Assembly: GCA_050250375.1 (NCBI GenBank)
Contig: JBFWOS010000002.1
Coordinates: 77,547-141,546, forward strand
Length of the DNA stretch: 64,000 bases
Direction: 5' to 3'
From: Candidatus Omnitrophota bacterium
Lineage (GTDB): Bacteria > Omnitrophota > Gorgyraeia > Zapsychrales > Zapsychraceae
The translations under genes were made by a program, and so were the position numbers. Positions 48,107 to 57,115 of the stretch are shown here, piece after piece (within the stretch, counting starts at the first letter, position 1; each line of letters opens with the position of its first letter). The notes beneath the pieces are model-generated. The model had not been told where the DNA came from. It was given only the letters and a program-made list of their open reading frames with translations, and searched no databases.

Positions 48107-48184
48107 TTTTCAATCCAAAACTTCCGACTAAGATAAATTTTAGCGGTAAATACAAAAGATATTGATAAATAAAGGCTTATAGAA

Positions 48185-48213
48185 TTGAAGGCTGTGGAAA
48201 ACTATGGTATATT
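48185..48213 (+). promoter_or_regulatory. Candidate sigma70 promoter driving the structured RNA
   Basis: -35 TTGAAG (48185-48190), a 17-nt spacer and -10 TATATT (48208-48213). The predicted TSS at ~48220 coincides with the 5' arm of the RNA's closing helix. Confidence 0.45.
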
Positions 48214-48220
48214 TAGACTG

Positions 48221-48457
48221 AGCCGATAAAGGTAAACCCGGGGAAACCCGGGGACACAAAACCGACAGACCTAAAATGTTTAAGGCCAAAGAGGCCCGAA
48301 CAGGCAAAAGAGCCGGGGCAATTTAAGACGAAGATCAGGTCAAGAACAGAATGGTGGCTGGGTTGCCGAAGTGCGATGAGGGAGACATCCTCATCTTTAT
48401 CGGCTTATCTTTCAAACGATAAGCATAAACCCCTTAGACATTAAGGGGTTTTTTTAT
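48221..48457 (+). ncRNA. Candidate structured RNA (~237 nt): either an independent sRNA or an attenuator-type 5' leader of the giant gene. The family is not recognised.
   Basis: A 9-bp closing helix pairs 48223-48231 'CCGATAAAG' with 48395-48403 'CTTTATCGG'. It encloses four elements:
- a 6-bp GC stem with GAAA tetraloop (48237-48252, 'CCCGGGGAAACCCGGG');
- a 'GGCCaaagaGGCC' hairpin;
- a 7-bp hairpin 48375-48395, 'GATGAGG.......CCTCATC';
- a 7-bp hairpin 48403-48424, 'GCTTATC........GATAAGC', whose 5' arm competes with the closing helix.
It ends in an intrinsic terminator. There is no ORF of 60 aa or more in the region. Confidence 0.5.
48428..48457 (+). terminator. Rho-independent terminator (3' end of the RNA candidate / attenuator)
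   Basis: 'AACCCCTTAgacaTTAAGGGGTT' followed by a T7 run. Confidence 0.7.
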
Positions 48458-48466
48458 TGGATTCTT

Positions 48467-48494
48467 TTGATTGCAATAAATAGTACTATATTAT
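48467..48494 (+). promoter_or_regulatory. Candidate sigma70 promoter for the giant gene
   Basis: -35 TTGATT (48467-48472), a 16-nt spacer and -10 TATTAT (48489-48494), ~55 nt upstream of ATG 48549. Confidence 0.35.
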
Positions 48495-48548
48495 ATACTA
48501 ATATCAATTCCAATTCCCCACCGTAGTAGGATAAATCCTAAATTACCT

Positions 48549-54744: not shown

Positions 54745-54778
54745 TCCAATTAAATAGATATCAATAAAGGACGTAAGG

Positions 54779-55924
54779 ATGATAAATAAAAATCGACTCA
54801 TTAAACTCACGCAGAATTTGATCCGGATTGATTCCACTAATCCCCCGGGACTGGAATATGAGTGTTCAAAGTTCATTGAAAAAGACATGAAGTCGTTGGG
54901 CCTGGAAGTTAAGACCGTCAGCTATGCCAATAAACGCCCGAACGTGATTGCGACTTTTAAAGGAACTTGGCCGCGTGCTAAAGCAAAAAAAGAAGCTATT
55001 TTACTTACACCGCATTTTGACACGGTGCCCACCGGGAAAGGTTGGACATTCAAACCATTTGGCGGTGAAATTCATGAAGGCAGGATCTATGGGCGTGGCG
55101 CTAGTGATGACAAGGGAAATACGGCCGCCTGCATGGAGGTTATTCGGTCATTCGTTGAAGACGGTGTAAAATTAAAGAAAGACGTGATCCTGGCCGCTAC
55201 CGTTGATGAGGAATCAGGATCACACATCGGAATCATTCCCTTGCTTGATAAAAAGGTGTTGAAGCCGAGGTTTGCATTAGTTGTTGATTCGACCGAATAT
55301 GACGCAATTATTGTTCAAAAAGGGGTCATTTTTTTGCGTGTACAGATTTTTGGGAAAAAAGCGCATAGTGCTTATAATTGGCGAGGAGTTAGCGCGGTAG
55401 AAATCGCCGCCCGATGTATTAATAACCTGACGAAACTCAAATTCCCCTATAAAAAACATAAACTTCTTCATCCGCCAACCATTAATATGGGAGTTATCCA
55501 TGGGGGAGACAAAGTCAATATGGTCGCGGATTATTGTGAATTTACGGTCGATCATCGCTATTGTCCTGGCACAAATTATAAAGAACCGTTAAAGATGATT
55601 ACCCAAGCCATCGCCAAAGAAGCCAAGAAATTTAAAATATCCATAGATGATTTGCAGATGCCCTACGAGATCAAAGAGGATCATCCGTATGTTAGTAAGT
55701 TCATGGAAATAAACAAGAAAGAGAAAACACCGGCAAAAGTCAAAGGGAGTGAAGGCGCGACGGTCATTACCTTTTTTCAAAAGCACGGTATCCCAGCCTT
55801 TGCCACCGGATGGGGGGCTCACGGGACTTTGCATGTCAATGACGAATATATCCGTATTGACGCCCTTTATAAGGGCACCAAAGTCCTCGAAAAATATATA
55901 AAAGAGTATGATAATCTGGAATAA
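54779..55924 (+). CDS. M20-family metallo-deacylase (ArgE/DapE/acetylornithine deacetylase-type)
   Basis: 'HFDTVP', 'GRGASDDKG' and 'DEESG' metal-ligand motifs and a dimerisation insert. AAGGA RBS. Confidence 0.8.
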   Translation: MINKNRLIKLTQNLIRIDSTNPPGLEYECSKFIEKDMKSLGLEVKTVSYANKRPNVIATFKGTWPRAKAKKEAILLTPHFDTVPTGKGWTFKPFGGEIHEGRIYGRGASDDKGNTAACMEVIRSFVEDGVKLKKDVILAATVDEESGSHIGIIPLLDKKVLKPRFALVVDSTEYDAIIVQKGVIFLRVQIFGKKAHSAYNWRGVSAVEIAARCINNLTKLKFPYKKHKLLHPPTINMGVIHGGDKVNMVADYCEFTVDHRYCPGTNYKEPLKMITQAIAKEAKKFKISIDDLQMPYEIKEDHPYVSKFMEINKKEKTPAKVKGSEGATVITFFQKHGIPAFATGWGAHGTLHVNDEYIRIDALYKGTKVLEKYIKEYDNLE

Positions 55925-55943
55925 AGCAGTCTAGAGATATGTT

Positions 55944-55973
55944 TTGACTAATAATTTAATTCGGCTTTATAAT
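55944..55973 (+). promoter_or_regulatory. Near-consensus sigma70 promoter for the TolB-like gene
   Basis: -35 TTGACT (55944-55949), a 17-nt spacer and -10 TATAAT (55968-55973). Confidence 0.5.
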
Positions 55974-56030
55974 GGTTTGATTAAATCGGACTAATTTGGC
56001 CAGGGCGATCACCTAAGAAAGGCAGAAAAT

Positions 56031-56954
56031 ATGGACCTTAAGGGGACAATTGTTTTTTCATCCGGAAAACATGGTAATTTTGATATCTGGACGATCAATC
56101 TAGAAACTAAGAAAGTAAGCCAACTGACTGATGGGGAGTATAAAAATGATTGCCCCCGCTGGTCACCTGACGGTTCAGAGATTGTTTATATATCTAACCA
56201 GTCCGGCATCCAGGAAATTTGGCTTATGGATGCTAATGGTGATAAACAACGGCAAATCACCAGGACAGAAAAATACCATAATTCACCTTCTTGGTCACCG
56301 GATGGCAGTAAAATTATTTTTTGTGCCAACTATGAAAATAATTTTGATGTTTATATCATGAACAAAGACGGTTCCGGGCTTGAAAGAATCACCAATTATG
56401 AGCAATCCGATTTTACTCCAGAATTTTCGCCTGATGGAAATCAGATTGTCTTTACATCCCAAAGGTCGGGGAATGATGATATCTGGATGTATAATGTCGT
56501 AACTCGGGAAACGAAACAGATCACCAACTATACCGGAAGGGACTATAGCCCGACCTTTTCACCGGATGGAAAGATTTTGGCATATGTTTCGGGGGATTTG
56601 AATCCTGATGGATCCGAAAATCTTGAAATATTTGCCCTGGAACTGGCTACCGATAAGACTTACCAGGTCACAAAAAATCCCGGCTTGGATCGTTATGTCC
56701 GCTGGTCGCCTGATGGAAAGTATTTGATTTATTGCGGGGGAAGAGGCGGCGGCAGCGCTGAACGTCTGACCATTTTGGAATATGCCTCGGGTAAATATAA
56801 AGAGGTTCAGTTCGACCGGTCCCGTTTGGATTTAGAGATCGATGCGCAACCCAAAGCCTTTGGTCTGTTTAATTTCTTGCCTGAAAGTGTCAGGCGTAAG
56901 TTTTATCCCAATGAATATTTCGGCACAGAGCGTTTTCCGGATTGGAAATATTAA
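56031..56954 (+). CDS. TolB-like PD40 (WD40-like) beta-propeller protein without a signal peptide
   Basis: Six or more PD40 blades, including 'RWSPDGSEIVYISNQSG', 'SWSPDGSKIIFCAN', 'FSPDGNQIVFTSQRSG', 'FSPDGKILAYVSG' and 'RWSPDGKYLIYCGG'. The protein starts directly in a blade ('MDLKGTIVFSSGKHG'). An in-frame stop lies 13 codons upstream. Confidence 0.75.
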   Translation: MDLKGTIVFSSGKHGNFDIWTINLETKKVSQLTDGEYKNDCPRWSPDGSEIVYISNQSGIQEIWLMDANGDKQRQITRTEKYHNSPSWSPDGSKIIFCANYENNFDVYIMNKDGSGLERITNYEQSDFTPEFSPDGNQIVFTSQRSGNDDIWMYNVVTRETKQITNYTGRDYSPTFSPDGKILAYVSGDLNPDGSENLEIFALELATDKTYQVTKNPGLDRYVRWSPDGKYLIYCGGRGGGSAERLTILEYASGKYKEVQFDRSRLDLEIDAQPKAFGLFNFLPESVRRKFYPNEYFGTERFPDWKY

Positions 56955-57115
56955 GGGTTCTTTCGTGTGCTGAAAACACGATGCCGTAAATCTAATCAAT
57001 TGATTGACTGTCCGCGGTGAAGAAATCCAAACCGATAAATTTGAATGATTCAATCTACAATTTGATTTTTGAAGGCGTTTGTGCTTCAATAGATGATTCT
57101 TGATGAGGAGAAATT

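Follow-up and report, generated by a model that had tools for sequence, protein, structure and literature searches.

A gene block shared among related Omnitrophota, headed by a predicted c-di-GMP-I riboswitch, lies between trpF and trpB

In a 64,000-nucleotide stretch of Omnitrophota DNA (hereafter the window; all coordinates are positions within it), the tryptophan genes are split, with trpG-trpD-trpC-trpF stopping at 48106 and trpB-trpA restarting at 57116, as identified with Pfam and NCBIfam models. The arrangement raises the question of whether the 9 kb in between was inserted into the operon, as the initial annotation had proposed, or belongs to the locus. The contents which that annotation had listed were recovered, namely a structured RNA, a 1933-aa ORF, a 100-aa zinc-ribbon ORF, an M20 deacylase, and a propeller protein; all ORFs of the interval were accounted for with Pfam, and its genes have no recognized trp function. 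No match to trpE was found by tblastn within the window. The features of the region are as follows.

43865-45127, plus strand: aroA (Pfam, NCBIfam)
45130-45693, plus strand: trpG (Pfam, NCBIfam)
45704-46714, plus strand: trpD (Pfam, NCBIfam)
46704-47495, plus strand: trpC (Pfam, NCBIfam)
47492-48106, plus strand: trpF (Pfam, NCBIfam)
43865-48106, plus strand: upstream aromatic/tryptophan unit aroA-trpGDCF, genes overlapping or closely spaced
48185-48213, plus strand: promoter-like site 1, TTGAAG-17-TATATT with a TG extension, a few bases 5' of the riboswitch
48221-48405, plus strand: c-di-GMP-I (GEMM-I) riboswitch, predicted with Rfam
48427-48458 (48427-48451 as called by the scan), plus strand: intrinsic terminator 3' of the riboswitch, 11-bp stem plus T run
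48471-48499, plus strand: promoter-like site 2, TTGCAA-17-TATACT, between the terminator and the giant ORF
48549-54350, plus strand: giant ORF, 1933 aa
54442-54744, plus strand: small100, 100-aa zinc-ribbon ORF
54779-55924, plus strand: M20 metallopeptidase, ArgE/DapE deacylase subfamily (NCBIfam TIGR01910)
56031-56954, plus strand: PD40 (WD40-like) beta-propeller, 307 aa
57116-58294, plus strand: trpB (Pfam, NCBIfam)
58291-59085, plus strand: trpA (Pfam, NCBIfam)
59094-60362, plus strand: M16 peptidase
57116-60362, plus strand: downstream unit trpB-trpA-M16

Split trp operons with non-trp genes among the trp genes, the trpF-trpB junction included, have already been documented (Kagan et al. 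2008, PMC2395257, a passage of which summarizes Xie et al. 2003). Like those operons, the locus studied here has two co-directional sub-clusters with non-trp genes between them in an arrangement conserved within the lineage. The usual break falls between trpEGDC and trpFBA (PMC2395257), whereas that of the window separates (aroA)trpGDCF from trpBA, and the Omnitrophota block is 1.5 to 9 kb long, riboswitch bearing, and Omnitrophota specific.

Gene order was compared with related loci (labeled L001, L014, L085, and so on), across which TrpB identity ranges from 94% down to 67%. All 13 related Omnitrophota loci carrying small100 have the M20 gene directly after it, and trpB(A) and the M16 gene lie further downstream in all relatives with a long enough contig; six of the 13 loci show trpGDCF upstream. 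The gene order of the window is repeated in L001, L002, L086, and L087, and L085 follows it from the giant gene onward, the region upstream being beyond the locus edge. A giant-family gene also lies 5' of small100-M20 and trpB in L088, L092, and L094. The giant gene is absent from L091, where the order is trpGDCF, riboswitch, small100, M20, DUF3108, and trpBA-M16. In L014, which has no trpGDCF upstream, the riboswitch is followed by a 99-aa Cys-rich ORF, small100, M20, DUF3108, trpBA, and M16, genes whose start and stop codons overlap, and in L089 it is followed by a DAHP synthase gene, further genes, small100, M20, trpBA, and M16. The only patchy elements among the 13 loci are the giant and PD40 genes, the latter restricted to the clade of the window and L085 to L087. 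A 229-aa gene that separates PD40 from trpB in L001 and L085 to L087 was considered as DUF3108-like and set aside, as it has no Pfam match and resembles a membrane protein. Genome searches with TrpB returned mainly other phyla, because the protein is too conserved, and were informative for L003, L004, L005, and L014 only; L005 (trpEGDCF-methyltransferase-trpBA) probably represents another lineage. A metagenome search with the M20 protein yielded two distant paralogues and nothing else.

The interval is indistinguishable from its flanks in GC, GC3, codon usage, and tetranucleotide profile, which argues against an acquired module, as does the retention of its core in relatives down to 67% TrpB identity. 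No hallmarks of a mobile element had been reported in the initial annotation, and this was borne out, as no tRNA and no integrase or transposase ORF is present and flanking direct repeats occur at chance level only. Its description of the interval as lineage specific suits the giant and PD40 genes but not the interval as a whole, and a known function, which it would have taken as a sign against acquisition, does not extend to the zinc-ribbon and giant proteins. That the whole 9 kb is one module, recently acquired or expanded in this lineage and put into an originally contiguous trpGDCFBA, is very improbable and already largely refuted by synteny: although 9 kb separates trpF from trpB, more distant relatives lack the giant and PD40 genes, and the giant gene has evolved much faster than its neighbors, small100-M20 is present in 13 of 13 related loci and the riboswitch in seven, and block genes in L089 and L014 overlap trpB or each other in the style of a single operon. 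Judged by these sequence comparisons, the interval is a gene block common to all related Omnitrophota genomes examined and not a recent insertion; an ancestral status of the block would rest on its presence in the most divergent loci.

The loci can be read as versions of one co-directional string. Its left part would consist of rho-rpmE-prfA-prmC-aroA-trpGDCF, the c-di-GMP-I riboswitch, and a first variable slot, and its right part of zinc-ribbon-M20, a second variable slot (usually DUF3108), and trpB-trpA-M16-rsfS-argS-recJ. In the lineage of the window, the first slot is occupied by a giant-family member and the second by the PD40 propeller in place of DUF3108.

The RNA at the head of the interval had been described as structured and terminator bounded. 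It is structured, but it belongs to a known riboswitch class that had gone unrecognized, as it matches RF01051 with 59.9 bits (gathering score, 35; E value, 3.3e-9) over the full model (1-87). The Rfam aptamer match covers 48221-48370 and comprises two hairpins, a GAAA tetraloop, and the conserved junction nucleotides. The closing helix is formed by 48222-48231 (GCCGATAAAG) and 48395-48404 (CTTTATCGGC), and an extra hairpin at 48375-48395 lies between the 3' end of the aptamer and the 3' strand of that helix. Model position 11, which separates c-di-GMP from 3'3'-cGAMP aptamers, is G and not A (AAAG/GU). This G, the linker CAAAA, and the 3' GCCGAA are invariant across eight orthologues, and we take the ligand-contact positions to correspond to Vc2 residues G20, A47, and C92. 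On these features, the RNA is assigned to the c-di-GMP-I riboswitches, with c-di-GMP as its presumed ligand. GGDEF, EAL, and HD-GYP motifs are absent from all frames of the window. As to the boundaries, one convincing intrinsic terminator is present on the 3' side, but the 5' side is a promoter-like site; a minus-strand "terminator" at 48252-48237 was rejected because it is the first hairpin of the aptamer.

Known riboswitches of this class include Vc2 of Vibrio cholerae and Cd1 of Clostridioides difficile. With RF01051 members the copy in the window shares a score well above the gathering threshold, the two hairpins and GAAA tetraloop, and an intrinsic terminator at its 3' side. It differs from them in an unusually long (10 to 11 bp) and invariant closing helix, the extra hairpin, a 65-nt extension on the second hairpin, and a U-rich tract, which follows the 3' strand of the closing helix immediately in eight of eight orthologues. 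It also sits in an aromatic/tryptophan string and not as a leader of motility, pilus, or adhesin genes.

Orthologous copies were found in seven relatives, giving eight with that of the window. Scores against RF01051 were 58.7 to 67.8 bits in five loci, and three further copies were found by sequence; these carry inserts of 46 nt or ~140 nt at one site, between the two hairpins. Almost no variation is seen in the aptamer core, closing helix, and promoter, whereas the neighboring proteins are just 31 to 76% identical, and the extra hairpin shows compensatory changes (GAUGAGG/CCUCAUC, GGUGAGG/CCUCGCC, and CAGGG/CCCUG). Of all elements in the interval, the riboswitch is the oldest and the best conserved. 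It was not found at the corresponding positions in L090 and L092.

Whose leader the riboswitch is can be judged from the relatives. In the window, L001, L002, L086, and L087, the first ORF past it is the giant gene; pilin and adhesin genes are commonly preceded by c-di-GMP riboswitches, and another such riboswitch in L089 (18488-18571) precedes a pilin-like gene. These observations would fit a private leader, part of a cassette for a secreted or surface protein under c-di-GMP control, that arrived with the giant gene and has no tie to small100, M20, or trpBA. Near-identical riboswitches, however, occupy the same junction in three relatives devoid of the giant gene, where they directly head the zinc-ribbon gene (L091), the Cys-rich ORF (L014), or the DAHP synthase gene (L089). 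Moreover, two giant-family members located elsewhere (L093) lack a riboswitch, as does the 168-nt gap upstream of the giant gene in L092. We therefore regard a private leader as quite unlikely; because the riboswitch heads the unit in giant-less relatives, it is taken as part of the locus, with the giant and PD40 genes in variable slots.

The 1933-aa protein has a signal-peptide-like N terminus (aa 1 to 39) with one hydrophobic segment (aa 13 to 34), in agreement with its earlier description as secreted, and export is presumed from this segment. A family-defining N-terminal domain (aa ~40 to 355) follows, and a C-terminal motif is located at aa ~1840 to 1905. In between, an internal duplication (aa ~400 to 760 versus ~944 to 1274) is 32% identical, and a weak GNAT match at aa 821 to 868 is the sole cargo-domain match; NCBI annotates the protein as a GNAT family N-acetyltransferase. 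The N-terminal domain was matched by 8047 clusters (50% identity), in N-terminal position every time, and all giant-family matches carrying a name are from Omnitrophota. The C-terminal motif is common to family members, although a 14,318-aa ORF in L093 lacks it at the threshold used, and the central cargo is swappable: it includes methyltransferase, NUDIX, glycosyltransferase 5, HEAT, phosphoglucomutase, PGI, aldolase, and M48 peptidase domains and differs between genomes even where flanking proteins are 92 to 99% identical. Constant ends around an exchangeable middle suggest that varied cargo is exported or anchored by one shared route.

No description of this family was found in the Omnitrophota literature searched. 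Archaeovorins (West-Roberts et al. 2023, bioRxiv 10.1101/2023.11.21.568195) share with it the phylum, a signal-peptide-like N terminus, fast evolution, and, for the giant family as a whole, a common stock of enzyme-like and repeat domains as cargo, the window protein itself giving only the weak GNAT match. As described there, they exceed 30,000 aa and have many TM helices, in contrast to 1933 aa and one hydrophobic segment in the window protein, and neither the ~350-aa N-terminal domain nor the ~60-aa C-terminal motif of the giant family figures in that description.

The zinc-ribbon assignment of small100 was confirmed. Its two CxxC knuckles (C31, C34, C46, and C49) are invariant across 37 sequences, along with R7, G25, F53, F58, D82, and D85; the AF2 model has a pLDDT of 88.5, and homologues carrying a name are all from Omnitrophota. 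A role as a PilZ c-di-GMP receptor was considered and rejected, since RxxxR and (D/N)xSxxG motifs were not found. The M20 protein likewise proved to be the deacylase expected, scoring 241.2 bits against TIGR01910 (cutoff, 217.6) with PF01546 and PF07687 matches for the catalytic and dimerization domains; among NCBIfam equivalogs, neither the DapE nor the ArgE model reaches its cutoff. The 307-aa protein, previously called a cytoplasmic TolB-like propeller, is a PD40 propeller that lacks both a signal peptide and a hydrophobic N terminus, but it is not TolB: TIGR02800 gives 184 bits (cutoff, 343), and the propeller half of the model alone matches.

Each element had also been credited with its own promoter-like signal. 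This did not hold, as 43 matches were obtained versus 40.9 +/- 7.0 in shuffled sequences, which is chance level. At the scan threshold, promoter-like sites lie upstream of the riboswitch, the giant ORF, and PD40, and none was found upstream of the 100-aa ORF, M20, or trpB. The first two sites are conserved in relatives: the layout of site 1 recurs in seven of eight orthologous leaders, no comparable site being identified in that of L089, and site 2 is conserved only among relatives with a giant gene at the same position. The best match of the region (11 of 12 positions) is at 55944-55973, upstream of PD40, and independent promoters could lie within the 106-nt and 161-nt gaps that precede PD40 and trpB. 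The terminator scan found none after trpF, and 48427-48451 is the sole convincing plus-strand terminator between trpF and trpB; its strength argues for trp genes organized as two transcription units, one of the options that the initial annotation had left open.

In constrained folding, the 48427-48451 terminator forms both when the closing helix is imposed and when pairing of its 5' strand is prevented. This helix and a GCCGA/UCGGC local hairpin both end at one U-tract, and no antiterminator was identified among alternative pairings or by constrained folding. Two inverted repeats between the leader (48387-48435) and the giant ORF (49470-49538) were discounted, as they are not ordered in the way that a single antiparallel duplex would require and look like the remaining chance pairs. 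According to the folding models, read-through in the window may not be gated by the switch. The giant gene is possibly largely independent of the riboswitch, because a conserved promoter-like site follows the terminator.

Promoter, riboswitch, and terminator might then act as an effectively stand-alone small RNA that also forms the 3' end of the aroA-trpGDCF transcript, always terminating at 48404-48451 and gating nothing in cis, with giant, PD40, and trpBA expressed from promoters of their own. The terminator that forms in both modeled states, the conserved TTGCAA-17-TATACT just past it, and the promoter-like site before PD40 would all agree with such an RNA. L014 and L089, however, have no second terminator, and their ORFs start ~45 to 65 nt (L014) or ~65 nt (L089) past the closing helix and U run, as fits a cis-acting leader; intrinsic terminators, moreover, are rarely fully efficient, and a near-invariant leader argues for a retained function. 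We consider a stand-alone RNA unlikely, though it fares better than a private leader.

Overall, the locus is probably a local version of the conserved string, with the riboswitch heading its second unit and c-di-GMP acting through it. Transcription arriving from aroA-trpGDCF, together with that started at the riboswitch promoter, would reach the terminator region of the riboswitch, where c-di-GMP bound to the aptamer would alter, with a polarity that we leave unassigned, read-through into giant, small100, M20, and PD40. Co-transcription would probably extend to trpBA-M16. The promoter past the terminator would add giant-gene expression independent of c-di-GMP.

The Bacillus subtilis aromatic supraoperon, aroFBH-trpEDCFBA-hisC-tyrA-aroE, is likewise a co-directional string of trp and aro genes with an internal regulatory RNA and read-through from upstream. 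Its regulator, however, is a TRAP-binding trp leader that senses tryptophan, in contrast to the second-messenger riboswitch of the window, and the string of the window interleaves peptidase-like and uncharacterized genes. A literature search found no paper tying c-di-GMP-I riboswitches to tryptophan synthase.

More broadly, and as a tentative proposal only, an Omnitrophota-wide riboswitch may head an operon of small100 (with an RNase-H-like core), M20, trpBA, and M16, and in one lineage DAHP synthase, such that c-di-GMP gates aromatic synthesis and the slot behind it repeatedly captures giant-family members. If this is true, c-di-GMP would gate the last or entry step of aromatic amino acid synthesis and, under the same signal, a candidate host-interaction effector whose N-terminal domain and C-terminal tag are fixed and whose enzyme cargo is exchangeable. 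Given its fixed place ahead of small100-M20-trpBA, joined in one lineage by DAHP synthase, the riboswitch would have an unusual target set for the c-di-GMP-I class. For genome scanning, the locus illustrates that what looks like a multigene insertion into a textbook operon can be ancestral in a phylum that has been little sampled. Omnitrophota are uncultivated, mainly ultra-small, and probably host-dependent bacteria, and to our knowledge almost nothing has been established about their gene regulation. The riboswitch, near-invariant among the lineages compared, offers a testable handle on c-di-GMP control in these cells.

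All long ORFs in the 64-kb window lie on the plus strand. The source is a Candidatus Omnitrophota MAG whose TrpB, M20 deacylase (ArgE/DapE family) and giant modular protein are identical to NCBI proteins. The initial annotation had placed five elements between trpF and trpB, an observation borne out by Pfam, NCBIfam, Rfam and ORF coordinates, which gave the following features.

Features of the trp region (protein-coding genes by Pfam/NCBIfam unless marked otherwise)
41968-43038, plus strand, prfA
43025-43843, plus strand, prmC
43865-45127, plus strand, aroA
45130-45693, plus strand, trpG
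45704-46714, plus strand, trpD
46704-47495, plus strand, trpC
47492-48106, plus strand, trpF
48221-48370, plus strand, c-di-GMP-I riboswitch, the structured RNA of the initial annotation (RF01051, 59.9 bits; gathering score 35)
48549-54350, plus strand, giant protein of 1933 aa (ORF)
54442-54744, plus strand, small100, a zinc-ribbon protein of 100 aa with CxxC...CxxC (ORF)
57116-58294, plus strand, trpB, separated from trpF by the 9-kb interval
58291-59085, plus strand, trpA
59094-60362, plus strand, M16 peptidase

The aroA gene (EPSP synthase) stands directly 5' of trpG (43865-45693). Neither trpE nor a DAHP synthase gene was found in the window by tblastn with one query each; at the related locus L089, a DAHP synthase gene stands instead behind the trp-locus riboswitch and leads on to small100-M20-trpBA.

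The gene order of the window was compared with 13 related loci on other Omnitrophota contigs, which were found via the giant protein, small100 and TrpB and ordered by TrpB identity to the window.

Gene order at related loci, with TrpB identity to the window
L002, 94%: same order as the window
L001, 91%: same order as the window
L088, 82%: giant, small100-M20, DUF3108 (with or without LemA-M48), trpB
L086 and L087, 80-81%: order of the window plus a 229-aa membrane-like gene 5' of trpB
L089, 80%: small100-M20-231aa-trpB-trpA, mutually overlapping; trpGDCF not upstream
L085, 79%: as the window from the giant gene onward; upstream region outside the locus
L090, 79%: trpGDCF, 448-aa PAS/MORN protein, small100, M20, further genes, trpBA
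L094, 79%: as L088
L092, 77%: as L088
L003, 77%: small100-M20-DUF3108-trpBA-M16
L091, 72%: rho-rpmE-prfA-prmC-aroA-trpGDCF, then small100-M20-DUF3108-177aa-trpBA-M16, without a giant gene
L014, 67%: small100-M20-DUF3108-trpBA-M16

The M20 gene was directly 3' of small100 in 13 of 13 loci, and trpB followed 0.7 to 4.5 kb beyond this pair wherever the contig reached. This core between trpF and trpB is therefore common to all sampled lineages and probably old. Two slots vary in content: the one from trpF to small100 houses the giant gene, and the one from M20 to trpB houses the gene for PD40, a 307-aa propeller protein; the 229-aa membrane-like gene is present in neither the window nor L002. At L090, the MORN/PAS protein (L090:8435-9781) takes the trpF-small100 slot instead of a riboswitch or giant gene and may be an alternative sensor at this junction. 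The order rho-rpmE-prfA-prmC-aroA-trpGDCF...trpBA-M16-rsfS-argS-recJ was seen again in the distant relatives L090 and L091, and this co-directional string from rho to recJ is unusually long for a conserved one. At L092, a nucleotidyltransferase/HEPN toxin-antitoxin-like pair (L092:13855-14486) lies 3' of trpB, in the expected place of trpA.

The initial annotation had read the 9-kb interval as a lineage-specific acquired or expanded module splitting the trp operon and had proposed a compositional comparison. In GC, GC3, codon-usage distance and tetranucleotide correlation, the interval lay within the range shown by the remaining 52 genes and by the 4-kb windows, so that it did not deviate from its flanks. 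No tRNA, integrase or transposase was found in the interval, and repeats were at chance level only. Promoter-like matches were equally frequent in shuffled sequence (43 versus 40.9 ± 7.0). Overall, the reading as an acquired module holds in part; against it stand this ordinary composition and a core shared by every locus compared.

Riboswitches of the c-di-GMP-I class were also detected by Rfam in L001 and L002, between trpF and small100 in L091 (67.8 bits), and in L014 (63 bits), where the copy is 5' of a 99-aa Cys-rich ORF and small100. This intervening ORF (L014:7428-7727; CSRCGACCGS...C...C) had no Pfam match. Alignment and motif search revealed further copies in L086 and L087, each with a 46-nt insert, and in L089, with an insert of about 140 nt at the same site. 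All three inserts (L086:4024-4069, the same site in L087, and L089:~3597-3745) fall at exactly one point between the two aptamer hairpins and look structured, and they account for the scores of these copies below the Rfam gathering score. In the eight copies, the aptamer core and a closing helix of 10-11 bp (GCCGAUAAAG/CUUUAUCGGC) are nearly invariant, whereas small100 shows only 31-76% identity beyond the clade of the window. Compensatory changes occur in an additional hairpin located after the aptamer and ahead of the 3' strand of the closing helix. In seven of the eight leaders, a TG-extended TTGA-17-TATA promoter can be seen; none of this type was identified in that of L089. Two giant-family members at another locus (L093) have no riboswitch. 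The simplest reading of these arrangements is that a small100-M20-...-trpBA unit was first headed by the riboswitch, with the giant gene placed behind this switch later. A second compact c-di-GMP-I riboswitch in L089 (18488-18571, 61.3 bits) lies just 5' of a pilin-like (N_methyl) gene adjoining T2SS-E/F-type genes, a classical target context for this class.

Each of the eight orthologues has a U-rich tract after the 3' strand of its closing helix (U9 in L014, U7 in L089, UUAUCUUUC in the window). A canonical terminator lies 20-30 nt beyond this tract in the window, L001, L002 and L091; it is weaker in L086 and L087, and no second terminator was found in the L014 and L089 leaders. Between trpF and trpB in the window, only one terminator on the plus strand is convincing, that at 48427-48451. 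On constrained folding, this second terminator formed whether the closing helix was forced or prevented, and no antiterminator emerged. The riboswitch would act by transcription attenuation, with c-di-GMP as either an ON or an OFF signal. A promoter-like site 3' of the terminator (TTGCAA-17-TATACT, 48471-48499) is kept in giant-bearing loci and may provide ligand-independent expression of the giant gene. No terminator was found 3' of trpF; the riboswitch terminator region probably doubles as the end of the aroA-trpGDCF transcript, and the trp genes would therefore form two transcription units.

Named relatives of small100 are all from Omnitrophota (n=56 relatives). G25, D82, D85 and the zinc ribbon are invariant, and D26 is nearly so; that the protein binds or cleaves nucleic acids is a guess. 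The gene seems absent from the NCBI annotation of the source genome, since the M20 and giant accessions are consecutive (MGE0267657 and MGE0267658), and its exact sequence is recorded only in Logan assemblies. The M20 protein scored above the ArgE/DapE subfamily cutoff and below every equivalog cutoff. The PD40 protein has no signal sequence, and its identity as TolB was rejected (TIGR02800, 184 against a cutoff of 343).

The giant protein has one N-terminal hydrophobic segment, ending ...LYA|Q, and no Cys in the remainder. By sequence it is a member of a large family: one search returned more than 3700 relatives and an exhaustive one 8047 clusters at 50% identity, with all source-named relatives from Omnitrophota or an unclassified metagenome bin. 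Only aa ~1-355 (~55% identical) and aa ~1840-1905 (consensus GGIDLxPxxLDLQIKRDGxGVPLP...IEGFxPVIINIxP) are common to the family. Giants of L088, L092 and L094 reach 3000-4300 aa; those of L092 and L094 matched the N-terminal domain as well as the C-terminal motif, and that of L088, whose N-terminus is outside the locus, matched the latter. The middles vary, including methyltransferase, histidine phosphatase, NUDIX, HEAT, phosphoglucomutase, PGK, enolase, PGI, GAPDH, M48/ABC1, receiver and other domains; that of the window carries an internal duplication (aa ~400-760 and ~944-1274, 32% identical) and a weak GNAT match. Compared with L002, the N-terminal domain is 72.5% identical, versus 92-99% for neighbouring proteins, and the two conserved end regions are 72% and 66% identical in protein; the two genomes are 84-90% identical in DNA. 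Within the gene, one cargo block of 1.5 kb (49731-51249) is replaced in L002 by an unrelated 1.95-kb block, and another of 0.96 kb (53006-53969) is missing there. The constant ends may function in exporting, anchoring or delivering the variable cargo. Archaeovorin giant proteins resemble the family in cargo repertoire and differ from the window giant in length and topology. A limited search of published Omnitrophota work found no description of the family.

At L093, two members lie within 17 kb, flanking mutL/mutS, and L093:1-6742 holds the end of a 14,318-aa ORF and a DDE transposase; giant-family genes are therefore grouped close to true giant genes. Six small genes separate giant and small100 in L085 (6167-9928), among them those for a Cys_rich_CPCC protein and a SUKH/SMI1_KNR4 protein. 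Proteins of the latter type frequently carry the label of immunity protein in polymorphic toxin systems, and this neighbor is a hint of a possible effector-like nature of the giant family.

Precedents exist both for split trp operons and for non-trp genes lying among trp genes (PMC2395257). The riboswitch of the window is a new, architecturally unusual representative of a known class with unusual gene surroundings, and the testable question is what comes under c-di-GMP control at this conserved junction of the trp locus.
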